Source: Meyerozyma guilliermondii
Taxonomy: Eukaryota
DNA: 64,000 nt
Assembly: GCA_051546255.1 (NCBI GenBank)
Contig: CP128816.1
Span: 1-64,000 of the forward strand
Direction: 5' to 3'
Position 1 is the first letter of the stretch, and every line of letters begins with the position of its first letter. Of this stretch, positions 3,528 to 52,827 are shown piece after piece. The notes beneath the pieces are model-generated. The model was not told where the DNA came from, made no database searches, and was given only the letters and a program-made list of their open reading frames with translations. The position numbers and the translations under genes were made by a program.

Positions 3528-5629
3528 CTAATATCGAAGGCTAATCCTAGCCATAAGAGGTCCGTAGATGTATGATTGGCCCGTATCGGGTTCTTTCAAT
3601 GTACAATTTCCACCATCTTGATGTTCTAGAATCTGAAAATTGGCTGGCATACTCAAAAGATCAATCATTTCAAGCTCAGCACCTAGACGTAGTTGTGCGA
3701 GTTTTTCAGCTCGAACCATTTCAAACGAAAAGGATGTAAGTCCAACACCTTCAAGATCAAGAACTCTTAGCTCCAGATCCTCATGTACCACAAAGTTGTC
3801 TTCTATTGGATTATAATCAAGATAGAGTGTCTCAATATGAGACTTGACTTCAAATGATTTTAAATCGTTTTCTCCCAAGTCTAGAAATGTAACTGATTGT
3901 GGAATGGTGAAACCATCTATGTTTTGCAAGTCCATTCCACGCAACTTTAGTGCCTTCAAACCTGGGGGGAGCTCAATCATTCTGTCGTGGATAGTAGTTA
4001 AATAATCTTCGTCCAATGAACTTAGTATAGATTTGCTCAATATCAATTCTTTCAATCTTGACCCTTTGGCAAATTTGACTCCACTCATACCTGACAAGTC
4101 CAAGCCCGTAAAGTGAAGTTCTTCAATTGATGATGGGAATGTGTAGTTTTGAAAAGCTCCAGTTCCAGCTCCCGAGAGTTCTACAAGTTTTAAATTAGGA
4201 GGCAATTCAGACATCTTGGGAAGATATAGTCCAAATCTTCCGAAACTAGGGACTTGAAGACATATTGAAAGTTTGGGAGTCGAAGTCAACTTATTTGTAG
4301 TCAAATCAATATGCTCAAGGAAGGGAGCTTCAATTTCGACTTCCGTTAATTTATTGCCTCTCAAGTTCAAAAATTCACAGCAAGGAAGAAGCGCTTTGAA
4401 AAGCTTATTTCCTGCAAGTGAAAGTGTCTTCAATTGAGCTGGTTTTAACCAGCCGGTGGTCAGAGTAATATTACATATCTCTAACTCAAGGTCGACAATT
4501 TCAGACGGAAAATTGATTATGGCCAAGTCTTTGAACTTAGCAGACCTAATAGAAAGTTTGACCAAGGTGGGCGGAAATTTTAAGCTGTCAATCTCATCTC
4601 TTGGGAAATTCAATGTAATGCGGAGCAAGTTGGGCGGTAATTCACAATTGTTGATGTCTGATGGCAACTTCAATGTAAGAGAAGTCATCTGTGTAAAAGC
4701 AGGCAAATTTTCGAGGCTTCCACCATTCAAGGAGTATAATGAGCGTAGCAGCCTGGGGATCCTAGTCGAAATTGAACCAGAGAATCCGAAACTTGTCACT
4801 TTGGGGCCGAGCATTGATAAAATTTCATCCTCCTCTATTATCACACGATATTCATCATTCTTTATTTCACGTTGATTGATATACGAAAAATGCTCTAACT
4901 CTTTGTTCCAGAGTTCTCTGACTAGGGAGGGGTTATCAGAAGGTCCGACCATGTTTTTTAAATCCAACACTGTGAGAACAGGTAGTTTTGGTTGGTCCTC
5001 GTTCATCCATATCCAGCTCTCTTATGCAACTAACTTTATCAAATGATTCGGTAATGCGCTGAGAGTCCCTCCCACAAGATTAAGGCTCTTCAAGCTGGAG
5101 TGAGTATTTTGCATTTAAGGCCATAAAAAGTCTCCAACTTTGGAAAATTATTCAAATCGATACAACTAGTAGTACTCAATGAAAGGCAAGTGATTTTGAG
5201 ATATATCTCATGGTCTAAAAAAATAGGATAGTATTGAAATGCCTTGTCATTGAGGTCCACATGGATGCCCAATTTTTGGCCGTTGTAAACTAGGTTGATT
5301 TCATCGAGGCATTTGTGCATTTGAGAAATGTTGCTCCATACATAATGGAACCAGAGAGGGCAATTGACTGACTTTTCTTCGAAAATCTTGTGTATTCGTA
5401 GAAATCGGTAGAAATCCGTTTCATAGTAAGCCTCATTACCTTCAAATATAGCTTCAATTGTATAGAATTGAATACGCTCTGAATACCATAAATGGTTAAG
5501 ATGGTCAGCTACAGCTTAAACTATATGATCAGAAAAAATCTCCAGTAGTATTATGTTGGTGAGCAGCTTTGTGTCCAAGTAAGAAAAGCAACTTGAGATT
5601 ATTTCATAAGGTAAAGAATTGAGGCTCAT
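3528..5629 (-). pseudogene. Disabled tandem paralog of the F-box/LRR gene
   Basis: ATG at 5629 (MSLNSLPYEIISSCFSYL) aligns with the intact copy. In-frame TAA at 5516-5518, a frameshift near 5105 and a second TAA near 5021. The 3' part survives as ORF 3528..5006. Confidence 0.85.
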
Positions 5630-16449: not shown

Positions 16450-17511
16450 TCAACTTTCCGAGCTCTCCATTTCAATATCCTTAACCTCGACATAGTCACC
16501 GTCAACATCTCTCCAGATGTACATCAAAAATGGAAGGGCAAACAATTCAACAATATCAGGTACGCTGTACCCATAATACTCATCAGGCAAGAACAAGTGC
16601 ATGACGAACCTAAACACATCTTCTGGTGCTGGAAACAGGACCATTGGTTTCAAAAAGTATACTGCAGTGACAATTGCTGCCGACTTCTTTACTAATGGAT
16701 ACTCTTCTGTATCCTTGTAGGTGCGGTACATAGAAAAGGCTAGAAGCAAGACAGCAGCAACTCGGGCAACTACCGAAACAATTTCCAATACACTGTCATT
16801 ATCAAGATACTGGAAACGAGACTGATTATCAGTAGTGACGTACACGTATTCCTCGAAAATGGAACCAAATGAGGAAACGGAAAAAAGAATGGTCATTATT
16901 GCTGATTTTGCCAATGCGTACTTTTCTTTTTCAAGAGTGAAAAACTTGACGCCGTAACCAAACGAGAAGAGGGCAAGTAACATGTATGGTGTAACTGATA
17001 AAAATGCCCTCAACACCGAGTAAGTGAAAAACACCCATGGCAGGCGTACTTTCTTGTATTCGAATTCAAATACCGCAACCAAGAACACAAAGTAGACCAA
17101 GGAAAACACCAATTTTACCGCAAAATAAGCATATATGATTTTGCTCAACTTAGAAAATTTGAAGAGATATCTGTACGCCTGACGTCTCCTGACATATAAG
17201 AAAAGAAGTGCCATAAATGCAATCAAGTATACTGGTAAAGAAACCTCCAATTTCTGTCTTTGGTCATAATGGGCATAATGCAAAGAAGGTCCCCTATGAT
17301 CTGCTGAATTGAACGAGTAAGAGTCTGTCAGATTGAATTGAGCCTTTTCAACACTAGTTTTCAAAAGGGTTATGAGCTGATCACTTGAGTAATCAGTAAG
17401 GTTCAATTTTCCACCAGTGTTCAATATATCTGACAAGCTACTTTTGCTCTCAAAAGCGATACCTTGATAGAGGCCATCCTCTTCATTGGATAAGTGAATG
17501 TTGAGTGTCAT
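16450..17511 (-). CDS. Multi-pass (about 7TM) membrane protein, paralog A, possibly GOST/PTM1-like
   Basis: Hydrophobic C-terminal two-thirds with LLALFSFGYGV, closely similar to the neighbour. Start placed at MTLNIHL by analogy with the paralog; an in-frame ATG at 17559 is also possible. Confidence 0.65.
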   Translation of the reverse strand: MTLNIHLSNEEDGLYQGIAFESKSSLSDILNTGGKLNLTDYSSDQLITLLKTSVEKAQFNLTDSYSFNSADHRGPSLHYAHYDQRQKLEVSLPVYLIAFMALLFLYVRRRQAYRYLFKFSKLSKIIYAYFAVKLVFSLVYFVFLVAVFEFEYKKVRLPWVFFTYSVLRAFLSVTPYMLLALFSFGYGVKFFTLEKEKYALAKSAIMTILFSVSSFGSIFEEYVYVTTDNQSRFQYLDNDSVLEIVSVVARVAAVLLLAFSMYRTYKDTEEYPLVKKSAAIVTAVYFLKPMVLFPAPEDVFRFVMHLFLPDEYYGYSVPDIVELFALPFLMYIWRDVDGDYVEVKDIEMESSES

Positions 17512-17739
17512 CGTTTTTGCCTTCCGATGCAAGGAATTGAGAAAATAGCCTCCTTCCATAAGCCACGATTAGCTAATAATAGAAGTGCAATTTGACACAT
17601 ATGACGCATATTACCTACATAGAGCTGCAGCATAAACTAAAGTGCACTTTATTTTCTCAGTTTCTAAACAATGTTTACGACCAACAATGATTGAACCTCT
17701 CCAATCTCAAAAACTCAAAAAAGCTACTTTTACGAGCGG

Positions 17740-18765
17740 CTAAGTCTTACTCTCAACATCTTCCACTTCATAATCACCATCAATATCTCTCCAAATATAC
17801 ATCAAAGCTGGAAGCGCAACCAACTCAACAATATCAGGAACACGAATTCCATAGTATTCGTCTGGCAAAAACAAGTGCATGAAGAATCTGTATACATCTT
17901 CTGGTGCTGGAAACACTACTAATGATTTCAAAAAGTACACTAGTGCGACAATTGCACCTGATTTTTTAACCAATGGGTACACTTCGGTATCTTTGAAGGT
18001 GTGGTACAGCGAAAGGACAAGTACTGCAAATGCAGCAGTTCGAACTAGAACAGTCTGCCCCTCCACGAAAGGCAGAAAATGATAACCATCGTCCGTCATG
18101 TACCAATACTCCTCTATAATCGAGGTAACCGCCGGAAAAGAAAAGAGACCTGTCATACTAATTGCCTTTCTCAAGTTGTACCTTTCGCTCCAAATATCAA
18201 AGTACGTAATGCCATATCCACACGAGAAGAGGGCAAGTAGCATATAAGGGGCAATTGATAGACAAGTTCTCATTACCGTATAAATGAAAAACAGCCATGG
18301 CAGGCGTATCTTCTCGTACCCAAATTCATACACAGCAATCAAGAAACCAAAGTAAGCCAAGGAAAATAATAATTTGACTGTGAAATAAGCATAAATGATC
18401 TTGCTCATCTTTGAAAACTTGAAGAGATATCTGTATGCTTGGCGCTTTTTGACGTAGAAGAAAACGAGCATTGTCAATGCTATCAAGTATACAGGCAAAG
18501 AGACTTGCAACTTTCTCTTTTGATAGTAATGGGAATGTTTCTCAATTCGTTCAAAGCGAGGCAACCTCTTCACAGTGTGAAACTCTGTAAAATTCACTTG
18601 CGTGACAGCCGCATGTAGAAGGCCATTGTATTCTTCCAGTGAATACAGTGAAAAGTTTTGGTTCTCGTTTTGATACAAAGCGTCAAAATTTGGGTTCATA
18701 TCCTTGTAGACGATGAATTTGGTATCGCCATTGATCCTAAAATCAAGTCTCAAATTGACAGACAT
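17740..18765 (-). CDS. Multi-pass (about 7TM) membrane protein, paralog B
   Basis: Shares VSLPVYLIA, RQAYRYLFKFSK and FPAPEDV..F.MHLFLPDEYYG..VPDIVEL with paralog A. Start placed at MSVNLRL; the longer ORF extends to 18912. Confidence 0.65.
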   Translation of the reverse strand: MSVNLRLDFRINGDTKFIVYKDMNPNFDALYQNENQNFSLYSLEEYNGLLHAAVTQVNFTEFHTVKRLPRFERIEKHSHYYQKRKLQVSLPVYLIALTMLVFFYVKKRQAYRYLFKFSKMSKIIYAYFTVKLLFSLAYFGFLIAVYEFGYEKIRLPWLFFIYTVMRTCLSIAPYMLLALFSCGYGITYFDIWSERYNLRKAISMTGLFSFPAVTSIIEEYWYMTDDGYHFLPFVEGQTVLVRTAAFAVLVLSLYHTFKDTEVYPLVKKSGAIVALVYFLKSLVVFPAPEDVYRFFMHLFLPDEYYGIRVPDIVELVALPALMYIWRDIDGDYEVEDVESKT

Positions 18766-18988
18766 TACAAAAAGGTAAATTCGTGCGTAATTAGTTAAAT
18801 GCGATAAGGGTTTTTTTTTTAATTCGCTAAATTTAGACACAGGATGTGTCAAATTTTGACATTTTTCACTTGGCGCATTTCGACCGTTCGCAGCCAGCGA
18901 ATTGACGAACATTCAAAAATACCTCTAGACTAAAAATAACCTCTTCTCCTAGGTACATGTAATTTTGCCAATGGCAGATCTCTATATT

Positions 18989-22659: not shown

Positions 22660-24080
22660 GATACGGCAAGAACAATAGAACAATAAAGTAAAGAACAAGT
22701 GACAAGAACAAGAGCGCAGTGAGTTGCACCCAGGAACCTCAGAGTTGTAGCAAAGCTTGAATCGACGAGATTTGGACAAACTCTGTCTGACTAAGTTGAG
22801 TCGCGACGGCTAGACGAGTCGGCTAGTGAATATGTGGTGGGAGATATTAGGCGCCATTGCATAGTCCACTTCAGTCGAGTACAACTTTAAACAGCAATGA
22901 TGTTTCCAAAAAGGGACACAAAAAAACACGAAAGTGGTTAGGTAATTCTCTGATGCGAAAAGAAACAGGTACGATACTTTGAGATTGGCGGCGATCACAG
23001 AAAGACTTGGCACTTAAGCAATTCTTATGGGCCCATCGACTTTTACGAGCAAAAGTCTTTTTGAGCTAAATGCTGCATTTGATACAGCCAGAGTCAACAT
23101 AGACAAACCAGGAAGCAGTAGATAACGATTGGTTCGCAGCCGGCAGTTGAGTTGCAACTTTATGCCTTGAAGTAGTAATAAATATTTTTGGACAACTTAT
23201 TCTTCTTTAAGCGGACGGCATCCAAGACCCAAAAATGGGTGCAAAATGAATGAGAAAATAACCCAGCATGCATCAAATACGCACAACGTGCGGCTCTTCG
23301 AGTCTTTAAGATCAGTTCTTTCACATGGATGATATTTTTACCGACTTAATCCGGGGTGCATCAGGCGTTTTACAGCACTATTGTACTGTTATAATATTTT
23401 TCCCTATACGAAATTTTTTGCCAGCCTTAGCTTCGTTTTCAGCCAAGTCGTCGATTATTGTAGAAATCGAGGTCTCGTAAATTGCTAAACAATAAGGAAG
23501 TAATTCATGGACCAATTGACTCGTAATAACTAGCAAATCCAATCCATGTGAGCTCACACATTGGTGATTGTGGTTCAGAAAGATGGGTCGAAATAAAGCT
23601 AATTGAAGCTCGCTAAAAATTACTGGCATCAATTAAATATCTGCCCAGCGTCGCAAGTACATCCGCTCGTCGCGAAGGACTAAAGAAGACATGCGGTTAC
23701 ATCATGCATGAAAACGAGTCCAAGCGCCATGCATATTTTGTGGAAAGTTATCTCGACCATTTTAGTTGTTCCAAAACTTTGTAAGACTACCAAATACACA
23801 ACCTTCGTCCCTTCAAGTTCACAAGGTTTCTCGGTGTTGTAAAAAGACGCCAACTGCTAGAAACCTGAAGGTTTTAAACCCAGGATTTGCATTTGGGATG
23901 CGTCAGCTAGCAGTAAGTTTCTAGCATAACCTGCGATGCATACGACTTATTTCGATGATGCGTTTAACCGCCGAAACCGCAACCAGTCGCAACACGCTTT
24001 TGACGAACCAATTGGGTGATCGTTGCATCAACGTTTCTCTCTTATATAAGAGTATTCCCCACCGGATATTCATCCAAAAG

Positions 24081-27000
24081 ATGCGGATTTACTCGCTTAT
24101 CGCAGCAGCTTTGCTGGTTACCGGAGCATTGGGTATCACGATATCTCAAGATACAGTGACTCTGGGTCCACTTAATGCTTTCGTTGGTCTTACAAAGGTC
24201 GACGCTGGTGCATATTGGTCCATCGTCAACAATGCCGTTTCTAGTTTTTTGGGAAGTCTTCAAGTGGATGGAAAGCTCTTCATTAGCAGTAATACCAATT
24301 TGATAGGTTTGACTGTTGAATTGCTCGGTGTTCTCAATTCAATCACCAATAATGGAGATATTTCTCTTGACTCCTCAAAGTCGATTTTAGCTCCCAACTA
24401 TAACCTTATTGGCGCCCTGTTCACCAACAACGGAAATATGTGGCTCGCTGGTGATGGTAGTGTTGGTACACCGCAAATGTCAATCACTTCTCTTAGCTGG
24501 AATAATAAGGGACTTATCGTTTTCCAACAAAAAGTCTTATCAAGTGGTTTCGTTACCTTGGGTGCAGTCGGCACTAGTATCCAAAACGATGGTACCATCT
24601 GTTTGATAAACGAAGTTTATTCACAAACCACTGCTATTAAAGGAAGTGGTTGTTTTGACATTGGTGCCAAAAGTAATGTGTGGATTCAAAACTCTCTCTT
24701 GAGTGTTGACCCTAACCAAACGTTCTACTTGAGCAGTCCATCGTCTAGTATGAGAGTTGAAGCGCTTTCATTGAGTCAAACCTTCAAGGTTGCTGGGTTC
24801 GGAAATGGAAACGTTTTGGGGATCAGTCTTCCAATTTTCAGCTTCCTGTACAGTCCAGTAACAGGTATTTTGAAGATAAATACCTCGCTCCTCTTCTCGT
24901 TCAACTTTAATATCGGAACAGGTTATGACCCTACTAAGTTCGAGAGGTTCACTACCGACTTCGGAGGAATACTTACGACTGTGATCAACGGAGGTATCAG
25001 GTATAACGGACCTGTACCATCAGGAGCCACGCAGCCTACTGCTTGTAAGGCTTGTCTTCCATTGCCAACACCTCCACAACCTTCGTCATCGTCGAGTCTG
25101 AGTTCATCTAGTGCACCACCTTCGTCAAGTGCTTCTTCAAGTGCACCACCTTCATCTAGTGCACCATCTTCGTCAAGTGCACCAGCGTCGTCGAGCGCTC
25201 CATCTTCTTCTAGTGCTCCAGCTTCGTCTAGTGCACCATCCTCATCTAGTGCACCATCCTCATCTAGTGCACCATCTTCTTCTAGTGCACCATCCTCATC
25301 TAGCGCTCCAGCTTCGTCAAGTGCTCCTTCTTCGTCTAGCGCTCCGGCTTCTTCAAGTGCTTCGTCTAGTGCTCCAGCTTCATCAAGTGCTTCGTCTAGC
25401 GCCCCAGCTTCATCTTCAAGTGCTCCATCTTCATCTTCTGGATCATCTTCTTCAAGCGGACCATCCTCATCTTCTGGACCATCTTCGTCTAACGGACCAT
25501 CTTCTTCTGGTGGACCATCTTCGTCAAGTGGACCTTCGTCGTCAAGAGGACCTTCTTCATCTTCTGGACCTTCCTCCGCTGGACCTTCCTCATCTTCTGG
25601 CAGTGGTGGACCAACGGGACCTTCTTCATCTTCGGGCAATGGAGGCCCTACTGGACCTTCTTCATCTTCTGGAAATGGAGGCCCAACTGGACCAACTGGA
25701 CCTTCTTCATCTTCTGGAAATGGAGGCCCAACTGGACCAACTGGACCTTCTTCATCTTCTGGAAATGGAGGCCCAACTGGACCAACTGGACCTTCTTTAT
25801 CTTCTGGAAATGGGGGCCCAACTGGACCAACTGGACCTTCTTCATCTTCTGGAAATGCGGGCCCAACTGGACCTTCTTCTCTTTGTCCAGGATGCACAAA
25901 GTTCCCAACCACTTTTGTCTCAACAAAGACTGATGGCTCTATCGAAACTGACACTGGAAACTATGTCATCACAACGGACACGACTGGACATTTGACAACT
26001 TACACCACTGATATTGGACCTCTTTGTCCAGGATGCACAAAGTTCCCAACAACTTTCGTTAGCACCAAAACCGATGGCTCGATTGAAACTGACACCGGAA
26101 ACTATGTTATCACAACTGACACGACTGGTCACTTAACCACATACACCACTGATATTGGACCTCTTTGTCCAGGATGTACCAAGTTCCCAACAACTTTCGT
26201 TAGCACCAAAACCGACGGCTCAATTGAAACTGACACTGGAAACTATGTTATCACAACGGACACGACTGGTCACCTAACCACATACACCACTGATATCGGA
26301 CCTCTCTGCCCAGGATGCACAAAGTTCCCAACCACTTTTGTCTCAACAAAGACTGACGGCTCAATTGAAACTGACACCGGAAATTATGTTATTACGACCG
26401 ACAATGGTGGACATTTGACAACTTATACCACTGATATTGGACCTCTCTGTCCAGGATGCACAAAGTTCCCAACAACTTTCGTGAGTACCAAAACCGACGG
26501 CTCAATTGAAACTGACACTGGAAACTATGTTATCACGACGGACAAGACTGGTCATTTGACAACTTATACGACTGACATTGGACCTCTCTGTCCAGGTTGC
26601 ACAAAGTTCCCAACAACATTTATCTCAACGAAGACTGATGGTTCTGTTGAAACTGACACTGGAAACTATGTGATCACAACCGACAAAGGAGGACACTTGA
26701 CAACCTACACCACCGACATTGGACCTCTTTGTCCAAAGTGTACGAAATTCCCAACGACTTTCACCACCAAGACCGATGGTTCTGTCAAGACCAAGACTGG
26801 AAATGTTATCGTTACCACCGACTCAAAGGGCCACTTAACCACATACACCACTGATATTGGCCAACTTTGTCATGTTTGTACAGAGTACACCACTGTGTGC
26901 CCAGCTAGCAGTGGTACTGGAAAGATAACCAGCAAAGTGATTGTAACCACAAGCGGAGCTGTTACCTACACCACCACGGTTCCATGTGACACAGTTCAAG

Positions 27001-27326
27001 CTGTCAGCACCACAGTCGTCACTATCACCAGTTGCCACAAAGACAAGTGTTCTACTGGAGTTGTTACCACTGGAGTCGCTACATTTTCCAAGTCCAACAC
27101 CGTTTATACCACATTTGTGCCATTATCCAGTGTTGCTGTGGTGACAAATCCTCCTAAATCTGCTGCCCCAGCAGTTTCTGGTGCTCCTCCCGTCACGTTA
27201 TCTTCGTCAAAAACCACCCTCGCATCACTCTCGAGAACCATCTCAGTCGCTCAAGGAGCCGGTGAAATGAATTCTCCTTTCTCCTTTGCGGTTGCTGGTG
27301 CTTTATTCTTGGGAATGTTGTTCTAA
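24081..27326 (+). CDS. Hyr/Iff-family GPI-anchored cell-wall adhesin (paralog 1)
   Basis: Signal peptide (MRIYSLIAAALLVTGALG), Hyphal_reg_CWP-like domain (GAYWSIVNN, NDGTICL, VAGFGNGN), Ser-rich and GPT-rich stalk, seven Thr-rich CxxC repeats, hydrophobic GPI tail. Confidence 0.9.
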   Translation: MRIYSLIAAALLVTGALGITISQDTVTLGPLNAFVGLTKVDAGAYWSIVNNAVSSFLGSLQVDGKLFISSNTNLIGLTVELLGVLNSITNNGDISLDSSKSILAPNYNLIGALFTNNGNMWLAGDGSVGTPQMSITSLSWNNKGLIVFQQKVLSSGFVTLGAVGTSIQNDGTICLINEVYSQTTAIKGSGCFDIGAKSNVWIQNSLLSVDPNQTFYLSSPSSSMRVEALSLSQTFKVAGFGNGNVLGISLPIFSFLYSPVTGILKINTSLLFSFNFNIGTGYDPTKFERFTTDFGGILTTVINGGIRYNGPVPSGATQPTACKACLPLPTPPQPSSSSSLSSSSAPPSSSASSSAPPSSSAPSSSSAPASSSAPSSSSAPASSSAPSSSSAPSSSSAPSSSSAPSSSSAPASSSAPSSSSAPASSSASSSAPASSSASSSAPASSSSAPSSSSGSSSSSGPSSSSGPSSSNGPSSSGGPSSSSGPSSSRGPSSSSGPSSAGPSSSSGSGGPTGPSSSSGNGGPTGPSSSSGNGGPTGPTGPSSSSGNGGPTGPTGPSSSSGNGGPTGPTGPSLSSGNGGPTGPTGPSSSSGNAGPTGPSSLCPGCTKFPTTFVSTKTDGSIETDTGNYVITTDTTGHLTTYTTDIGPLCPGCTKFPTTFVSTKTDGSIETDTGNYVITTDTTGHLTTYTTDIGPLCPGCTKFPTTFVSTKTDGSIETDTGNYVITTDTTGHLTTYTTDIGPLCPGCTKFPTTFVSTKTDGSIETDTGNYVITTDNGGHLTTYTTDIGPLCPGCTKFPTTFVSTKTDGSIETDTGNYVITTDKTGHLTTYTTDIGPLCPGCTKFPTTFISTKTDGSVETDTGNYVITTDKGGHLTTYTTDIGPLCPKCTKFPTTFTTKTDGSVKTKTGNVIVTTDSKGHLTTYTTDIGQLCHVCTEYTTVCPASSGTGKITSKVIVTTSGAVTYTTTVPCDTVQAVSTTVVTITSCHKDKCSTGVVTTGVATFSKSNTVYTTFVPLSSVAVVTNPPKSAAPAVSGAPPVTLSSSKTTLASLSRTISVAQGAGEMNSPFSFAVAGALFLGMLF
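25083..25883 (+). repeat. Coding minisatellites: (APSSSS)n, (GPSSSS)n, then (GPTGPTGPSSSSGNG)n
   Basis: 18-bp and 45-bp near-perfect units are visible in the DNA. Confidence 0.85.
25884..26867 (+). repeat. Seven 141-bp (47-aa) Hyr1-type repeats (last unit 138 bp)
   Basis: CPGCTKFPTTF...TTDIGPL recurs every 141 bp from 25884 to 26730. Confidence 0.9.
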
Positions 27327-28178: not shown

Positions 28179-29714
28179 ATGTCAACTCAATTTTGGAAAC
28201 CAGGAAAACAGGTGAGCTACGCAGTAACATTTACTTGTGAGCTCGCATTCATTCTCTTCGGAGTCGAACAAGGTATTGTGGGAAACTTGATTGATGGTGA
28301 AAACTTCTTGAATCAGTTTGGACACCCTACGGGCAGCTACTTGGGAATTATAGTTTCAATCTATACGCTCGGATGCTTTTTTGGTTGCATTCTCACATAC
28401 TTTGTTGGTGACTATTTAGGGCGCCGGAAGACTATTGCAGCAGCTATGGTATTAGTGATTGTTGGAGTTGCTCTTCAAACTAGTGCTTTCACGGTAGCAC
28501 ACTTGATGATAGGAAGGTTTATTTGTGGTCTTGGTACCGGAATGGAAACTAGCTCGGTTCCCATGTATCAAGCTGAGCTTTCTCGTCCGGAACTTCGTGG
28601 TCGACTTGTGTGCTCCGAAGCATTGTTTGTTGGAGTTGGTTTAGTTTATGCTTATTGGTTCACTTATGGGATGTCGTTCACCTCAGGAGCCATTGTATGG
28701 CGGCTTCCAATTGCTACACAAATAATTTTTGCAGCGGTGGTTCTTGGTCTTACTTGCACCATTCCAGAATCGCCTCGGTACTTGTACTTCAAGGGTCGGA
28801 AAGACGAGGCCAAAAAGGTTCTCTGCTATGTATTTGGGAAGCCAGAAACCGATCCGGAGATTACTAGTTTGTACCAAGAAATCGAGGAAGCCATGATACT
28901 TGAGAGTACTGAAGGTGCGTATTCTTGGAAAAAACTTCTCGTTAAAGACACAGCCAAAACCCGCCATAGAGTGCTTTTGGCATACATGTCAATGTTTGCT
29001 CAACAGGTTGGAGGAGTTAACTTGATAAACTACTACATAACCACGGTTTTGATCAATAACGTTGGCATAGAACGTAACTTGGCTATGATTCTTGCAGGAT
29101 GTACAGTCATTTGCTTTACAGTTGGATCCTTGGTGCCCTCATTCTTCAGTGATTCGCTTGGAAGAAGATTACCATTAGTGTATGGATATATTGGATGCGG
29201 AGTATCCATGCTTTTCATAACTATTCTTTTGAGTTTCCAAGACAATAGTCGGTTGAAAGAGTCCACGGGATCGGCTGCGGTTGCCTTCTTCTTCCTTTTC
29301 CAGCTTATATTTGGTGCTTCCGGTAACTGTATTCCTTGGGTAATTGTGCCAGAGATACTTCCTTTGCATGCAAGAGCCAAGGGAACTGCTATTGGTATTT
29401 CTGCCAACTGGTTGTGGAATTTTTTTGTGGTGGAAATAACCCCAACTATCATCACCAACATCAAGTGGAGATCGTATCTCATATTCACGGTAACGAACTT
29501 TGCATTTGCATTGATGTTCTACTTTTTCTACCCCGAAACCAAAGGGCTCACCTTGGAGTCAATCGACAAACTCTTTTCCGAAAACAGCACGATGCTTATG
29601 GGATTCGTTGACACCAAACAATACCGCAATACTCCGCTAGAAGAATGGGACTCCGGGACTTCCAATGCGAAAAGCATTAGTTTGCAACATGTTGAATCAG
29701 TAGGATCTAGTTAG
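28179..29714 (+). CDS. Sugar porter (MFS), STL1-like sugar/polyol transporter
   Basis: Motifs GDYLGRR, GRFICGLG, PESPRYL, QQVGGVNLINYY, PEILPLHAR, PETKGLTLE. TATA-like run at ~28131. Confidence 0.9.
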   Translation: MSTQFWKPGKQVSYAVTFTCELAFILFGVEQGIVGNLIDGENFLNQFGHPTGSYLGIIVSIYTLGCFFGCILTYFVGDYLGRRKTIAAAMVLVIVGVALQTSAFTVAHLMIGRFICGLGTGMETSSVPMYQAELSRPELRGRLVCSEALFVGVGLVYAYWFTYGMSFTSGAIVWRLPIATQIIFAAVVLGLTCTIPESPRYLYFKGRKDEAKKVLCYVFGKPETDPEITSLYQEIEEAMILESTEGAYSWKKLLVKDTAKTRHRVLLAYMSMFAQQVGGVNLINYYITTVLINNVGIERNLAMILAGCTVICFTVGSLVPSFFSDSLGRRLPLVYGYIGCGVSMLFITILLSFQDNSRLKESTGSAAVAFFFLFQLIFGASGNCIPWVIVPEILPLHARAKGTAIGISANWLWNFFVVEITPTIITNIKWRSYLIFTVTNFAFALMFYFFYPETKGLTLESIDKLFSENSTMLMGFVDTKQYRNTPLEEWDSGTSNAKSISLQHVESVGSS

Positions 29715-38308: not shown

Positions 38309-41698
<3,390 letters not shown>

Positions 41699-41952: not shown

Positions 41953-43623
41953 TTATGCCAAACTCTTGATCGGCTGGGACTCCACAGGCTCAAGTTCCAC
42001 TTCCTTATACTCCAACTGGTTCCATTCTTCTTCCCGCTGATTATAGTGCTTGTAACAAACCCAAAAAAGGCACCCAGCTACGAAGCACGATACTGCCAAG
42101 CCGGTGTACGACCACACAAACTTGGGGTTTTCAGATGTGGAAGATAAAGCTATTCCAAGGGCTGAACCTCCAGCGTTGGTTAGCAAGAACAACGACATGA
42201 TAAACGACTTCATACTAACAGGCGCCTTTGTATAAGCGTACTCCAAGCCTGTAATGGAGGCAAAAATCTCCGACAACGCAATCAAGACATAAGCGGGAAC
42301 TTGAAGGGCAATATGGATACGATTTGGAACACCTTCAAATCCCTTGCAAGTCAAAGGTTCGTCGTAACAAGGTCCGGCTTTGTAGATGTAATGTTGCAAT
42401 ACCCCAGCATATACCATTGCAGCGGTACCAAACATGAAGCCCAAAGTGATTTTTGTGATGGACTTTAAAGGAGTGAACTTTCTAACGAATGGATATACAA
42501 AATGCTCACAGATGGGAATAAAGACAATGATAGTAATCGAGTCGATAACCTGAAGAAAATCGTTGGGCAACCCATGGAGCTCCATTTGGCCTGCTTGGGA
42601 TACAAAGTTGTTGAGCATTTGTCCATAAACCACCCAGTAGATGGGGTAGTACAAGAAAACCTTACAAGCATACACGGCTCTTTTCACTTCTTCAACAAAA
42701 TGGTCAGTCCACGGAAACTCTTTTTCAGGATTTTTCGACGGTTTGGCAGCTTCAAATGTGAACCGACTCCTTAAAGCTATCCAAGTACATTGAAAAGACT
42801 TGGCAATAACCTTATTAGAAACTGGAACTATGGTATAAGAATTCCTACCAAGAATCAATGCTGCGATAGCAATGAAGAAGAAACAGAAAGGTAAAAGGAA
42901 AGCTGCCCAGAACCCCACACGGGCCTCTAATTCAGTGGTTGCAATAATAGACAAAGAACCAATATTAATCATGAGATAGAAAAACATGAACACATTTTGT
43001 ATGGTGATTGCTGGGTCCTGCACCACTCTTTCTCCAGACTTCAAAACTTTGATAACTGGCTGGGTTTTTGGAACCTGATCTGCAATCAAAGGTGACACAT
43101 TTGACGAGATTCCACCAGTTCCAATTCCAATGATGACAATTGCAACTATATACCCTCCCAAAGCTGTGTTGTAGCTGGTAATAGCGGGAATAGACGTGAT
43201 GAACAAAATGAGGATTCCAGCCATATAAATAAGACAGAAAACCACAATGGTCTTGTACTTGCCCCAAAAAGTATCAGCAACCCAGGCTCCAAAAATCGGA
43301 GTGACATAGCACCAAAATTGGAAAAAATATGACAACGCAGTGGCTCCTTGATTTTTTAAGTTTAAAGCTCCAGGAGGAGTTCCACTAGGACCATTTTGCA
43401 TGTAGTTTTGGAAAGGTGCACTCAAACCAAAGGACGAAAAAGTTCCTGCCAACTCCACCACACCCACAAGATAACAACTAATGGGGATTTTTGCGGCAAC
43501 ATGGCGTAAATTATTTAATTCGTCCAAAGTCGGAGTTCTGCCTTCGTCGTCTTCATATGATCTTTCTCCAGAAAAGGTACCAGAGTCGATGTTGATCACG
43601 TCCAAATTCTTTTCGTTGTTCAT
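41953..43623 (-). CDS. PTR/POT-family transporter, PTR2-like, with a non-canonical substrate site
   Basis: GLSAPFQNY, GAWVADTFWGKYKTI, FYLMINIGSL, SQAGQM, SEIFASITGLEYAYTKAP. The ExxERFxYY motif reads ELAGTFSSF. Confidence 0.9.
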   Translation of the reverse strand: MNNEKNLDVINIDSGTFSGERSYEDDEGRTPTLDELNNLRHVAAKIPISCYLVGVVELAGTFSSFGLSAPFQNYMQNGPSGTPPGALNLKNQGATALSYFFQFWCYVTPIFGAWVADTFWGKYKTIVVFCLIYMAGILILFITSIPAITSYNTALGGYIVAIVIIGIGTGGISSNVSPLIADQVPKTQPVIKVLKSGERVVQDPAITIQNVFMFFYLMINIGSLSIIATTELEARVGFWAAFLLPFCFFFIAIAALILGRNSYTIVPVSNKVIAKSFQCTWIALRSRFTFEAAKPSKNPEKEFPWTDHFVEEVKRAVYACKVFLYYPIYWVVYGQMLNNFVSQAGQMELHGLPNDFLQVIDSITIIVFIPICEHFVYPFVRKFTPLKSITKITLGFMFGTAAMVYAGVLQHYIYKAGPCYDEPLTCKGFEGVPNRIHIALQVPAYVLIALSEIFASITGLEYAYTKAPVSMKSFIMSLFLLTNAGGSALGIALSSTSENPKFVWSYTGLAVSCFVAGCLFWVCYKHYNQREEEWNQLEYKEVELEPVESQPIKSLA

Positions 43624-44772
43624 TGTCACAAGTGGAGCGAGCACACCATTTTATACCTTTGTGGGATCAGATAATATGCCCTCACAGGATTTGCAGCAAG
43701 GGTCCATTCGTAATGTCACAGCCGCACGGACGCCGCACTGAAGCCACAGGGACGCTGCTGTCAAGCCCAATACGGAGCATTACAGCCACACACCCACACT
43801 AAACCAAGTCAATGAATAGAGGCTGAGCTGTGCCTCAAGGGTGCCACTTGAGCCACGACGGAGCCACGACAGCCGTGCCACATACGGCAAAGTCAGGCTA
43901 CATTGAGTAACATATACGGATTCTGGAATTTTGGTTTTGAGTGGAAGAACCGGGAGTTTTTCACACCAAATTATCAATGTTAGCTCTTTAGCGTCAGAAT
44001 GCAACCTTTAGAGCGTGCATACGACTGCAGCATACTTTGGTTATTCGCGAAGGTAAGATCTTATTTGGACCAATGAAACGATTTTGCCGTATGCCGGACT
44101 CTCACCACAGTCATGCCGTTCCCCACACTGAATCTCGTTTACTGGTGCGGCTGAGTTGATCATACGAGGAAGTGCAATGGGAAACAAGAGTGAGGAGCCT
44201 ATAAACCTGAGATGCTATAAAATGTAATTGGGTTGAGTATTGCGTGACTCGCAATATAGCTAAGCTTGGAACGAGAGCTATTTGTCGAGCATACTGGAAA
44301 TCTTATGATGATTATCACTAATAATTGTCACTTATTACCCTCACTAGTAATTGTCACTGATTTTCCTCACTAACAATTCTCACCAACTATTACTAACAGT
44401 TCACATTCGTGACTCATTCGAACTTGTGATTAGTTTATGACGCCGATCACTTCGTATCCATGACCCCGTGGTTAAAGCCTTATCGTCTACCACATGGTTG
44501 CATTGAGGAGTCATGCTTTCGGATTTACTATCGTCGGCATTGAGCCGATCTTCATTACACTCAATTTAATGACCTCGCTGATCAATTCTCGGCATAAGAC
44601 GGCAAAAGGCAACACGGCTGGACGGAAGACGGCTCGGCTATCACCTCGACGTCACCATGCGTCAGATGGTTCCTCGAATCACATCAATGCACCGAGATGA
44701 CTTTAATTTACGAACTCGAACACATTGTCTTGGCATGCATTTAAATATCCACCCAAACGGCCCCGAAGGCCA

Positions 44773-45972
44773 ATGGCTTCAGAACCTCCACCTCCATATG
44801 AGAAAGAAACACCAAATGGCGAAATTACATTCGCATCCCAAACTGAAAGATTGGAACAGTTATTCCATGACCCACCACGGTACCCTACCATTATCGAAAA
44901 CCCGAAACCCTCGAGCTCCCGCAATGGGGTCAGCTGTCTTATGTCGCTCACGGCGTTCATAATGTACCTTTTGGTGGTTATTGGCTGCTCAGTTAATGGG
45001 TTAAAAGGCTTATACTTGGTCCGCTTTGACAACGTGGGTGCTCGTTTCTTGGTGAGAGATTATGCTTATGCCGCTACAGTCACGGCAAGAAGAATGGAGG
45101 TGACAAGTATTCCCTCAACCACAAGAAGCTTCTCCTTGAGGCCTTCAATCGAGGCATTTGCAACCGCTACAGAAATTTCCGCATCGGGTAATATGGTTGC
45201 AACCACCACCCAGTCCTCGTTCACAACTCCTACATCTGCCAGTTCGATGGGTTCATCAAAAAGCGCTTTTCAATCAGCAACAGCATCCTGGAGATCTAGA
45301 ACAACTCCCATTACTAGTGCAAGAGCCCTGGCAACATCATACTACACCAGACCAGAAGCCCTGTACCTTCCAACCAATTTGGGAAATTTCACGGTATTTA
45401 TGGGCTACTATGGTACAGTCAAGAACGCACACTATCGTTATGGTTGGTCATTGGGAATACCGTCCGAGTACTATGTTGGTATTTGGTCTTATGGCTATTT
45501 TTCCACAGGCTACAAAACAAAGAGAAACACCATTTATTCTGGAATTGACTACTCGAAAATGGTCAATGATAACGCCGTTGTCTGGGTGTATATGCCTGGG
45601 CTCAACTATAAGGAAAAAGAGATTGAATTTCTGGGAAGATCCAAAATGAACCAGACAAATAAAATTGCCATGGCACTCCAGCCTTTATCTGTGATCTTGA
45701 TGGTGTCACTAGTGTTCTTTGTTGGAATGGCATTTCAAATACTTCCTCGGAAATGGGCCCGTTATATTGCACCTCTGACTGTTGTCTACTCACTTGTATT
45801 CAACATTCTATACAACGTGGTTGCAAGAAGGTATGGTTCTTATATTACCACGGCATTTCCGAAGAAAGAAGTCACTGTCGACAAAGGATTGAAATCTGTT
45901 CCAATTCTCTGGATTGCATTTGCGTTCCAGTGCATCACCAGCTTCATTGAATTGATTCTTCTGCTTCATTGA
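44773..45972 (+). CDS. SUR7/PalI-like four-TM protein with N-terminal PY motifs (paralog 1)
   Basis: PPPPY and PPRY motifs, one TM, large Ser/Thr-rich loop with YYVGIWSY, three C-terminal TMs. First ATG at 44773. Confidence 0.6.
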   Translation: MASEPPPPYEKETPNGEITFASQTERLEQLFHDPPRYPTIIENPKPSSSRNGVSCLMSLTAFIMYLLVVIGCSVNGLKGLYLVRFDNVGARFLVRDYAYAATVTARRMEVTSIPSTTRSFSLRPSIEAFATATEISASGNMVATTTQSSFTTPTSASSMGSSKSAFQSATASWRSRTTPITSARALATSYYTRPEALYLPTNLGNFTVFMGYYGTVKNAHYRYGWSLGIPSEYYVGIWSYGYFSTGYKTKRNTIYSGIDYSKMVNDNAVVWVYMPGLNYKEKEIEFLGRSKMNQTNKIAMALQPLSVILMVSLVFFVGMAFQILPRKWARYIAPLTVVYSLVFNILYNVVARRYGSYITTAFPKKEVTVDKGLKSVPILWIAFAFQCITSFIELILLLH

Positions 45973-46510: not shown

Positions 46511-47671
46511 ATGGACACGGAATTTCTACCAACATATGAAAAAGCGATCCACTCAAATACTGCAACATTACCTGTTGACGGAACCTCACCATTGGGCGGC
46601 ACTCAAACTCTTAGAAACCACGAACAACCACCAAAGTATACTCTTATCGATGGATATTTGCGAGAAAACTACAGAAAGTCCAAGAAAAACCCATGTTTGG
46701 CATTACTTGGTTGGATCTTGTCGATATTTGTGTTCATATCATACCTCATTGTCGTCTTGGGATGTGTGACAAAACCACTCAAAAACCTATACTTTGTTCA
46801 TTTTGACATTGAACATGCCAGTTATGTTAAGGGAGTACGTCGATATGGCTATGGCTACGCAGCAGAAGATAAGAGCAAACTACCGCTAAATGAAGTGGAT
46901 ACTAGCAGTGCGACAGTCTCCGAATTTGCAGCCATAAAGAAATATGATCTTTCAAGTGAAGAAGTTACGGAAAGGTTAAGCTCAAGAACCACTCCCAGCC
47001 CTTCAAAAGCAATCCCTTTTTCAAGAGATTCTGTGTCAAATCCATCTCTGCTCTTGCCAACAAGAATCCCATATCTTGAAACGTATATGGGATACTTTGG
47101 TCCACTAGATGACAATGCTACCTATGTGAGCGGAAAAGATCTTTTTCTTGATCAAAGCTACTTTGCGGGAGTGTGGGTTTGGGGAAGGGAAAATTATGGT
47201 TTCTACGAATCAACCTACTTACCACTTGAGCCAGGGTTGAATATTTCTCAAAAAATGAACGAATACACAAGTACTTCACATCTCAATATGGTTGGGTTGA
47301 ACTACTTACCCGATGAGTTTCCTCAAAGATCCACTGTACTCCATTGGAACAAAGTATTCAAAGCCCTTCAGCCCTTATCAGCAGTGTCTTTATTTGCAAC
47401 TTTCATTTTTTTGTTTCTCAGCTTTCAAGTTGTTCCTACAAAATTTACCTTGGCAGTATCTTTGGTGTCACTTTGCATTGCACTTGCTTTTAATGTGTTG
47501 TATACTGTTGTTTCCACTTCTTTTGCTTCCAATTTGTCAAAGGCATTCTGCTTTAAAGAAGTACCAGTAAAACGAGGAACAACCTCAATTATCCTACTAT
47601 GGGTTAGCTTTGCTGTTCAAGTAATCGTATCAGTTTTGCGAATACTGATTTTTTTGACCAACGACAGATAA
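46511..47671 (+). CDS. SUR7/PalI-like four-TM protein with PY motifs (paralog 2)
   Basis: LPTY and PPKY motifs, same topology. Shares YL.VV.GC, LK.LY.V.FD, MGY.G, ALQPLS and FN.LY.VV with paralog 1. Confidence 0.6.
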   Translation: MDTEFLPTYEKAIHSNTATLPVDGTSPLGGTQTLRNHEQPPKYTLIDGYLRENYRKSKKNPCLALLGWILSIFVFISYLIVVLGCVTKPLKNLYFVHFDIEHASYVKGVRRYGYGYAAEDKSKLPLNEVDTSSATVSEFAAIKKYDLSSEEVTERLSSRTTPSPSKAIPFSRDSVSNPSLLLPTRIPYLETYMGYFGPLDDNATYVSGKDLFLDQSYFAGVWVWGRENYGFYESTYLPLEPGLNISQKMNEYTSTSHLNMVGLNYLPDEFPQRSTVLHWNKVFKALQPLSAVSLFATFIFLFLSFQVVPTKFTLAVSLVSLCIALAFNVLYTVVSTSFASNLSKAFCFKEVPVKRGTTSIILLWVSFAVQVIVSVLRILIFLTNDR

Positions 47672-51129: not shown

Positions 51130-52827
51130 ATGGGCTTTTTGACTGACCCACTCAAGCGACTCAAATGGGGGTTTATACCTACCAGACGTGAGGTAGAGGA
51201 CGAGATTGAAGTGGATGTGGTGGAGGTTAAGTCTGATGAGAAAGCCGACGTTTCAAGCGATTCTACCGCTGACGGCCCGGTATTGGAATATCGCGATGAG
51301 CTGCAACGCAAATGGTATAAATTCTTTGACGAGTACGAATACCGTCTTAATAGTAAGACCAGAAGTCAACACAAGTGGTTCAAATGGTTTAATGAAACCG
51401 ATACCGCCGCGGAGCGCAAATTGATTACCAAACTCGACATCCTCTTAACGTTCTATTCACTCATGGCATACTGGGTCAAGTACTTGGACCAAACCAACAT
51501 TAATAATGCTTATATCGGAGGCATGAAGGAAGGTGTGGGCATGAAAGGAAACGATTTGGTCAATGTTCAAGTCATGTTCAAGATTGGTAACATTATTTTT
51601 CAGATTCCATTCATGTACGCTCTTTATGGTTTACCACTCAACTTTGTGCTTCCTGCCCTCGATGTGTGTTGGTCCATTTTGACGGTTTGCATCTACAAGG
51701 TGGAGCATGTGGGACAACTTAAGGCAATAGTGTTCTTTGTGGGAGCTTTCGAAGCACCAGCTTATTTGGCTTATCAGTACCTTTTTGGGTGTTGGTACAA
51801 GGTTGATGAAATGGCTCGTAGATCCATGATTTATTACTTTGGACAATTCCTCGGCTTGATGACTAGTGGACTCTTAAGTGGTGCCATAGAATGACATTTG
51901 GATGGCGCCAATGGGTTGGCAGCTTGGCAATGGATCTTCATTGTCGATGGTATTCTCTCCATTGTTGTTGGATTCATCGGCTTTTATGTTCTTCCAGGAA
52001 CCCCTACCGACTGCTACTCGATCTTCTTGAGCGATGACGAGATCAGATTGGCCAGAAAAAGATTGAAAGACAACAAGACAGCTACCAGACCAGACAAAGA
52101 CCTTGTCAAATCACTTTTCTCTTTCAAACTTTGGAAACGAATCCTTGGCTCGTGGGAAATTTATGTGTTGAGTTTGTGGAACATTTTCTGCTGGAACAAT
52201 AATAACGGTACTTCGGGTTCGTACGTTTTGTGGATCAATTCTCTCTTGGACAAAAACGGTAATCCAAGATACGGGAAAGGGAAGAAGCAAGATTATACCG
52301 CTCTTACTCCAGGATTGGGTCTTTTGTGGCTTTTTATCACCTGTACGTTTGCAGATTTGTCACATTCCAGATGGGGAGCCTTAATCTTTTCCCAAGTATT
52401 CAACTTGATCGGTAACATACTTTTGGCAGTTTGGCATATTCCAGAAAGAGCAAAGTGGTTTGCATTCTGTCTCCAGTACTTTGGCTGGGCCATGGCGCCA
52501 GTTCTTTATTCGTGGCAAAACGATATCTGCCGTCATGACGCTCAAATTAGAGCGGTGGTGTTGGTATGGATGAACATGCTAGCACAGTCAACCACAGCTT
52601 GGACATCGGTTTTGGTATGGAAAACTGTCGAGGCCCCAAGATACCTCAAGGGATACTCGTTTACTGCTGCCTGTGCTTTGGCATTGTCCTTGTGGACATT
52701 TGTTGTGTTGTGGTTCTACAAGAGAACCGAGAGACAAAATGCCCGAGAACAAGGTATTGTAATTTTGGATTCGGAGTCGTCTGAACAGACAAAGATAGAT
52801 ATAGACGCGAAGAAGGAGGACTACTAA
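51130..52827 (+). pseudogene. SEO1: SEO1-like MFS permease interrupted by one in-frame TGA (nonsense allele, readthrough or sequencing error)
   Basis: DPLKRLKWGFIP, EYRDE, YWVKYLD, FCWNNNN and KTVEAPRY match Seo1. The two ORF halves are in frame, joined by GAA TGA CAT TTG (TGA at 51892-51894). Confidence 0.8.

Follow-up and report, generated by a model that had tools for sequence, protein, structure and literature searches.

A PTR2-type carrier of Meyerozyma guilliermondii without the TM1 and TM4 hallmark residues of its family: an apparently maintained duplicate and a candidate uncoupled transporter

The 64,000-nucleotide stretch of Meyerozyma guilliermondii DNA analyzed here (positions 1 to 64,000 of the forward strand of contig CP128816.1, GenBank assembly GCA_051546255.1; the window in what follows) encodes on its minus strand, at 41953..43623, a carrier of the family called PTR2 or POT (for proton-dependent oligopeptide transporter), and this protein, referred to as P0001 or the window protein throughout, is a member of the family by descent that is devoid of two features by which proton-dependent oligopeptide symporters are defined, the ExxERFxYY motif of transmembrane helix 1 (TM1) and the conserved Lys of TM4. 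The comparison of its homologues points to a selectively maintained, and not a decaying, duplicate of the canonical yeast PTR2, in which constraint is relaxed around the lost residues and normal elsewhere. Functionally, P0001 may work without coupling, as a facilitator or an exchanger and possibly as an exporter, and may recognize the carboxylate end of its substrates in an altered way, a reading about which we find ourselves evenly poised between acceptance and doubt. The features that carry the argument are the following.

41953..43623, minus strand: POT/PTR2-family carrier, divergent paralog; intact open reading frame (ORF) of 556 amino acids plus stop, supported by Pfam, AlphaFold2 and Foldseek.

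43426..43455, minus strand: TM1 motif, ELAGTFSSFG in the place of ExxERFxYYG, with E57 kept and E60G, R61T, Y64S and Y65F; from the codons and the alignment to human PepT1 (hPepT1).

43105..43107, minus strand: Ser173 (TCG, within GTGGISSNV) at the site of the conserved TM4 Lys, K140 in hPepT1 and K126 in PepTSt; from the codons and the alignment.

42964..42966, minus strand: Asn220 of TM5, within MINIG, the equivalent of hPepT1 N171, retained; from the phmmer alignment, nearly invariant in the homologue alignment.

42268..42270, minus strand: Glu452 of TM10, within SEIF, the equivalent of hPepT1 E595, retained; from the phmmer alignment, nearly invariant in the homologue alignment.

The TM1 codons read E57 GAG (43453-43455), L58, A59, G60 GGA, T61 ACT, F62, S63, S64 TCC, F65 TTT and G66 GGT (43426-43428), and the first Glu and the Phe alone remain of ExxERFxYY; at the TM4 site the Lys has given way to Ser173 in P0001 and to Ala in the lineage of its relative P0003. 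The original prediction, made from the letters of the window, had located ELAGTFSSFG at 43426-43455 and a TCG codon at 43105-43107 within GGISSNV, and the direct reading of the codons bears out both the coordinates and the residues. When aligned by phmmer, ELAGTFSSFG falls opposite EFCERFSYYG (E23, E26, R27, Y30, Y31) of human PepT1 (7pmw) and S173 opposite its K140; PepTSt was absent from the phmmer matches at E≤0.001, and its residue numbers are thus not aligned directly to P0001. Arithmetic on the codons indicates that the five replacements (E60G, R61T, Y64S, Y65F and K173S) require at least six nucleotide changes under the genetic code. The retention of the MINIG Asn and the SEIF Glu had likewise been foreseen, and N220 does pair with N171 and E452 with E595 of hPepT1, the pair to which the original prediction ascribes the binding of the peptide's amino end.

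The gene consists of 556 codons in one uninterrupted frame, followed by TAA, and its translation is the same under the standard code (table 1) and under the code in which CTG is read as Ser (table 12), since CTG does not occur among its 47 Leu codons. This codon is also rare in the other ORFs of the window, which, like the neighboring genes for Hyr/Iff adhesins, an OPT transporter and leucine-rich-repeat proteins, is in keeping with a yeast of the CTG clade. The protein matches the Pfam family PF00854 (PTR2/POT) with 303.6 bits (cut-off 27; E 2.7e-90) over positions 1-384 of the 392 of the profile. Its AlphaFold2 model, built on a 78-sequence alignment, reaches a mean pLDDT of 90.7 and a pTM of 0.87, residues 1-18 and 547-556 being the only parts of low confidence, and the solved structures ranked highest by Foldseek are SLC15A4/PHT1, PepT2, bacterial POTs including PepTSo, and NRT1.1 (probability 1.00, TMt up to 0.80). 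As modeled, the fold of P0001 is intact and corresponds to the major facilitator superfamily (MFS) fold of the solved POT structures. With 556 residues the protein is shorter than most canonical homologues (548-652 aa), from which it also differs by a shorter N-terminal tail; about 46 residues precede TM1, and about 30 follow TM12.

Out of 5.8 billion clustered proteins, the 120 that match P0001 best are PTR2s of yeasts, with 60-99% identity to it, and these were pooled with the members of their clusters and with the matches of a search using the N-terminal region (residues 40-190), giving 152 proteins, of which the 146 full-length ones (at least 500 aa) were aligned. Outside the divergent clade, the two Glu and the Arg of TM1 and the Lys of TM4 are kept in every one of the 131 full-length yeast PTR2s, four of which have one Tyr replaced by Phe. 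Two 90% clusters, with 15 full-length sequences between them, make up the divergent clade. The first is formed by P0001, eight variants 99-100% identical to it and P0129 (96%), and all 10 read E-G-T-S-F at the motif positions and Ser at the Lys site; the second, that of P0003, is 84% identical to P0001, and its five full-length members all read ALAEQFSYYG and GSGGIASNV, with the first Glu replaced by Ala, the Arg by Gln and the Lys by Ala, and with both Tyr kept. Further non-canonical members were not found among the best 120 matches of a homologue search restricted to residues 40-190, and the scan of metagenome contigs with P0001 returned 33 loci, at best 73% identical, 27 of them with the canonical ExxER and none with a non-canonical motif. 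The motif change is thus fixed across many independent assemblies and is common, in another form, to a second lineage. The original prediction had left room for substitutions private to one strain and drifting; their being common to three lineages, P0001, P0129 and P0003, removes this possibility.

The descent of these lineages was followed in three trees, one by FastTree on 86 rows and two by IQ-TREE on the same 35 rows, a quick one and a careful one under LG+C20. P0001 falls inside the yeast PTR2 clade, within the PTR2 tree of the CTG clade, and all three trees unite the three divergent lineages in a single clade (support 100/99 in the careful one), whose sister is a canonical group made of P0021 and the P0012 cluster (UFBoot/SH-aLRT 98/95 in the careful IQ-TREE tree, 96 in FastTree). 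By their source names, the members of the P0012 cluster include PGUG_05281 of Meyerozyma guilliermondii ATCC 6260 (P0304) and a sequence of Meyerozyma sp. JA9. The topologies of the two sister clades mirror each other, ((P0001,P0129),P0003) against ((P0304,P0012),P0021); their terminal and inner branches are of nearly equal length (0.19 and 0.19; 0.14 and 0.12), and the identities of the corresponding pairs are 96.0 versus 96.1% and 83.6 versus 87.1% in the divergent and the canonical clade, respectively, with 69.8% identity between P0001 and the canonical P0304 over 553 columns. Because the maximum-likelihood trees display these mirrored three-lineage topologies, the simplest reading would be an old duplication that preceded the split of three related lineages, with both copies kept in each; the assignment of P0021 and P0003 to one organism, and of P0012 and P0129 to another, follows from the trees and is to be taken as presumptive. 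In the window itself, tblastn with P0304 matched the P0001 gene and no other locus. The description of the gene as an intact PTR2 paralog, put forward in the original prediction, stands directly as regards its intactness, and its paralogy is borne out in an indirect way, by the canonical Meyerozyma sister clade and the mirrored topology.

The constraint on the divergent copies was assessed on the 102 columns that are the same in at least 130 of the 131 canonical yeast PTR2s. Three of these near-invariant columns are altered in P0001 and P0129 (E60G, R61T and K173S), which keep the other 99; P0003 differs at five (E57A, R61Q, W104F, T169S and K173A), and the canonical sequences, evaluated by leaving each one out in turn, deviate at a mean of 0.49 columns, with a median of 0 and a maximum of 7 (P0141 with 7, P0140 with 5 and P0150 with 4). 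The chance that three random changes in 102 columns would all strike the four coupling residues is about 2e-5, according to our own, post hoc arithmetic. Tajima tests with seven outgroups assigned 43-54 unique changes to P0001 against 50-67 to the canonical P0304 (p 0.05-0.69), and 40-50 to P0003 against 54-66 to the canonical P0021 (p 0.03-0.69), and in the maximum-likelihood tree the stem of the divergent clade (0.31) is shorter than the canonical stem (0.52); if anything, the divergent copy has evolved more slowly than its canonical sister. In the 171 columns conserved at 95% or more, the pair P0001/P0003 differs at 10 and the canonical pair P0012/P0021 at 2 (Fisher p 0.035), but six of the 10 are motif or Lys sites, which have W51Y (TM1), W104F (TM2) and T169S (TM4) as neighbors, and once the six are removed the figures become 4 of 165 and 2 of 171. 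Since the conserved columns that differ cluster at or near the motif and Lys sites, constraint is relaxed locally, around the lost network, and normal elsewhere. These data point to a selectively maintained P0001, and they agree with the judgment of the original prediction that decay was unlikely, given the 99 near-invariant columns kept and a rate not accelerated with respect to the canonical sister.

The distribution of the replaced residues within the clade also suggests an order of events. Only six departures from the columns conserved at 85% or more are common to the whole clade, A54G, R61 (to T or Q), D81G, K173 (to S or A), V226I and F325Y, and the charges lost clade-wide are those of R61, D81, position 151, K173, position 188 and position 542. 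A compensating new residue, charged or proton-binding, conserved in the clade and rare in the canonical proteins, was sought across the alignment, and none was found. By parsimony, the common ancestor of the three lineages would have lost the pair formed by the TM1 Arg and the TM4 Lys first, and the orphaned network would then have eroded separately, through E60G, Y64S and Y65F in the P0001 lineage and through E57A in the P0003 lineage. Each of the two lineages retains one of the two motif Glu, which fits the removal of an uncompensated buried negative charge.

The functional consequences of such losses may be anticipated from other members of the family. In the parts of Solcan 2012 (PMC3419923) on which we draw, the roles of Glu22, Glu25, Arg26, Tyr29, Tyr30 and Lys126 are described in PepTSt, and the Arg and the Lys are reported to adjoin the bound ligand in solved POTs. 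According to the same text, alanine mutants of the motif display measurable uptake only under counterflow, with the exception of Tyr29; Arg26Ala was not expressed and Lys was used in its place; Glu22Gln and Glu25Gln are devoid of proton-driven uptake and active in counterflow; and the replacement of Lys126 by Ala, Arg, His or Gln abolishes proton-driven uptake and leaves counterflow intact (PMC3419923). For the plant carrier NPF2.11, the charges of EXXEK are given as essential for substrate accumulation in the portion of Jorgensen et al. 2015 (PMC4675897) used here. The Arg/Lys pair of canonical POTs is both a part of proton coupling and a neighbor of the bound ligand, and P0001, which keeps the rest of the alternating-access machinery together with N220 and E452, would most likely still bind and move small amine-bearing solutes, the canonical proton-coupling mechanism of ExxER and Lys being presumably no longer usable. 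By analogy with the mutants of other POTs, the loss of canonical coupling is probable, and so is an altered recognition of the carboxylate end, because the Arg and the Lys adjoin the ligand in the solved structures; a change of substrate and of transport direction may accompany them. The expected outcome would be a facilitator or exchanger that works uncoupled, or possibly an exporter, in which the carboxylate end is recognized differently, and it would be premature to class P0001 with the proton-dependent symporters.

The best surviving alternative is that P0001 remains a proton-coupled importer of di- and tripeptides, making use of the remaining TM1 Glu, of the TM10 Glu or of other residues, perhaps with a lower affinity or a shifted preference, and we regard it as unlikely, albeit deserving serious consideration. 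In its favor, both the Asn of TM5 and the Glu of TM10 are kept, as are 99 of the 102 near-invariant columns. Nevertheless, the substitution of Glu22, Glu25, Arg26, Tyr30 or Lys126 was in each case sufficient to abolish proton-driven uptake by PepTSt, as far as the consulted parts of that study go (PMC3419923), and P0001 has four or five of these substitutions at once; in addition, the clade offers no conserved charged residue as a replacement, and the erosion of different motif residues in two lineages fits a network in disuse.

Several points weigh against the interpretation of P0001 as a maintained, uncoupled carrier. The absence of the motif does not prove the absence of coupling, and the remaining motif Glu and the TM10 Glu could still bind protons; some plant NPF7 members keep a low-affinity proton coupling independent of ExxER/K, according to the available sections of PMC12780319. 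Purifying selection is read from tests at the protein level only, that one genome has both this gene and its canonical counterpart is deduced from the trees, and the order of the losses depends on parsimony, an ExxEK intermediate being possible. Moreover, P0130 is a C-terminal call of 286 aa on a 9.7-kb contig, which may represent a disrupted allele or an assembly error, and the same may apply to P0133 (231 aa, with a noisy tail of many substitutions) and P0132 (321 aa), a split pair on a single 9.1-kb contig.

The possibility that P0001, though descended from a transporter, no longer transports and serves as a receptor, sensor or scaffold, in the manner of the yeast nutrient sensors or of SLC15A4 recruiting TASL, had been raised in part by the original prediction, which proposed a sensor, and it seems to us improbable. 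The loss of residues for energized transport from a protein whose ligand-binding pocket is still constrained would suit such a role, and SLC15A4-TASL complexes are among the best fold matches, POT folds being able to act as scaffolds according to the partial accounts at hand. The transporter-derived sensors Snf3, Rgt2 and Ssy1 possess long cytosolic signaling tails; P0001, with its 556 residues and its short tails of about 46 and 30 residues, differs from them in having no added cytosolic domain. The rate of evolution has not accelerated, and the near-invariant transporter residues are all kept save at the three coupling sites, as a working carrier predicts; on these grounds the sensor proposal is given less weight.

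A non-functional relic, that is, an inactivated duplicate in slow decay, is less probable still, and we consider it very doubtful. It would account for the loss of key catalytic residues, for an erosion that continues differently in two lineages and for two truncated or split gene calls among the 19 members of the clusters. By contrast, 15 of these 19 sequences are full-length and open, across three lineages up to 16% divergent, and of the four that are short, P0136 (260 aa) comes from a contig of only 1.9 kb, the end of which probably cuts it; only 3 of the 102 near-invariant columns are altered, the lineage-specific changes are fewer than in the canonical paralog, and outside the motif region the differences sit in variable columns, as they do in the canonical pair. 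A pseudogene was rejected on account of the open frames, the near-invariant columns kept and the lack of acceleration. As for a sequencing or assembly artefact of the record, to which we attach a negligible probability, it is refuted by the identical motif in all 10 full-length cluster members, which come from several sources and contigs of independent assemblies, and by the at least six substitutions needed, and the original prediction was right in holding an error to be unlikely.

Considered as a whole, the earlier interpretation stands with regard to an intact gene, to changes that are targeted and shared by a clade, and to a constraint as strong as that of the canonical copy, and it finds no support with regard to the sensor; its further proposals, amines, non-carboxylate or sulfur compounds as substrates and a role in export, are candidates at most. 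A broader and more tentative proposal, which we think possible but somewhat less likely than not, is that the clade records a natural, stepwise conversion of a symporter into an uncoupled carrier: a duplicate would have lost the Arg/Lys pair, each lineage would then have lost one unpaired Glu, and the alternating-access machinery would have stayed under full purifying selection. These replacements might be a minimal natural route by which a POT passes from proton-coupled import to facilitated diffusion, exchange or export, and the new substrates might need no free carboxylate.

The remaining features of the window concern the surroundings of the gene, the first of them being its presumed promoter.

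43624..44772, strand not applicable: 1149 bp of intergenic DNA upstream of the gene, common to it and to the divergent ORF 44773..45972; presumed promoter, from position only.

This region contains one GATAAG site, at 44479, which is no enrichment, and the whole window has 40 such sites versus 28.7 expected, figures that give no hint of nitrogen regulation. On the other side lie two large genes for cell-wall adhesins of the Hyr/Iff type, at 23955..27326 and 38309..41698 on the plus strand, the second of which ends at a distance of 254 bp from the PTR2 stop codon. Both encode the Pfam domain Hyphal_reg_CWP at the N-terminus (E 1e-114 and 2e-117, respectively), long stretches rich in Ser and Ala, and a unit of about 40 aa (CPxCTxFPTTF...) repeated in tandem about 10 times. 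Apparent paralogs also stand side by side as three tandem pairs, 1191..3275 and 3528..5006 (minus strand), 16450..17559 and 17740..18912 (minus strand), and 44773..45972 and 46511..47671 (plus strand); one of these pairs has leucine-rich repeats, another looks membrane-bound and has no Pfam match, and the third has one weak SUR7/PalI match. The region looks rich in recent duplications. Carriers and genes that may serve nutrient use are crowded in the segment 6791..35268, among them an ATG22-like gene, two MFS_1 genes and one OPT oligopeptide transporter, and a sugar transporter at 28179..29714 adjoins a Zn2Cys6 regulator, a gene of the transketolase family and a zinc alcohol dehydrogenase. At 51130..51894 (plus strand), an ORF of 254 aa with hydrophobic segments has no Pfam match at E≤1e-5. 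Two of the homologue records bear odd source names, P0093 that of the bacterium Kocuria palustris and P0303, in the 90% cluster of PGUG_05281, that of the basidiomycete Naganishia cerealis; both probably derive from contaminated assemblies.

ExxERFxYY and the TM4 Lys are regarded as hallmarks of the POTs, and they have been lost in a close relative of Ptr2, about 70% identical to it, that is conserved as tightly as its sister. The TM4 Lys is called "absolutely conserved" in the accessible part of Solcan 2012 (PMC3419923), and a survey of PTR proteins in Candida (10.1101/2022.03.14.484144) finds the three motifs of the family well conserved in every member studied and, in the portions available, names C. 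guilliermondii only in the introduction. A description of a paralog of the P0001 type was not found in the open-access literature of PMC and bioRxiv. The two end-states of the clade and the nearly isogenic pair formed with the canonical copy bear on the question of which residues make a POT proton-coupled, and the pair bears as well on what an uncoupled POT does in yeast and on how substrate recognition shifts once the positive Arg/Lys pair is removed. In Candida-type yeasts, where PTR carriers are considered for the delivery of peptide-based antifungals, a second and mechanistically different carrier could change uptake.

Among the known systems, the nearest is the canonical yeast Ptr2, of the type of S. 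cerevisiae PTR2 (YKR093W) and with P0304 (PGUG_05281) as the closest sequence, which shares with P0001 the Pfam family, the fold, the TM5 Asn and the TM10 Glu, and differs from it in having the ER of ExxER, the two Tyr of FxYY, the TM4 Lys and a longer N-terminal tail. The point mutants of PepTSt, the functional model adopted here for P0001 as far as they are described in the parts of the study used, are altered at the same positions, but they are single laboratory mutations of a bacterial POT, whereas in P0001 four to six positions have changed jointly, by evolution and apparently under selection. In plants, too, the TM1 motif has disappeared naturally from duplicated genes that were retained: in the sections of PMC12780319 drawn upon, Arabidopsis NPF2a and NPF7 are described as being without the motif, NAXT1 is said to carry out passive efflux, and the absence of the motif is linked to export. 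These plant carriers, NPF2a (the NAXT1/NPF2.7 group) and NPF7, are nonetheless not kin of P0001, which nests in the yeast PTR2s, and their substrates are anions and hormones; the positive residue of TM4, also gone in P0001, is mostly kept in the plant NPFs, 87% of 2383 of which have it (Longo 2018, PMC6288477). A lysosomal dipeptide uniporter, MFSD1, shows that uniport by an uncoupled MFS dipeptide carrier can be physiological, to judge from the limited description at hand; it belongs to another MFS family, is not a POT by descent and is likened to P0001 by that description only.

Within the fungi, the wider family was sampled through the best 150 representatives of clusters at 50% identity, 91 of which cover all six sites. 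Twenty-nine of these 91 deviate at one of the two Glu, the Arg or the Lys, mostly at the first Glu only; in fungal POTs at large this Glu of ExxER is often G, A or S, with the ER that follows and the TM4 Lys unchanged. About three of the 91 (P0183, P0198 and P0272) have no positive residue at either the TM1 Arg or the TM4 Lys site, but they are only 31-36% identical, represent old lineages and are aligned with less certainty, in contrast to the recent loss of P0001 inside the invariant yeast PTR2s. In summary, POTs without the motif are already known in plants and evidently exist in other fungi, and what is unusual here is the recent loss within an otherwise invariant yeast PTR2 group, for which a canonical twin is available for comparison.

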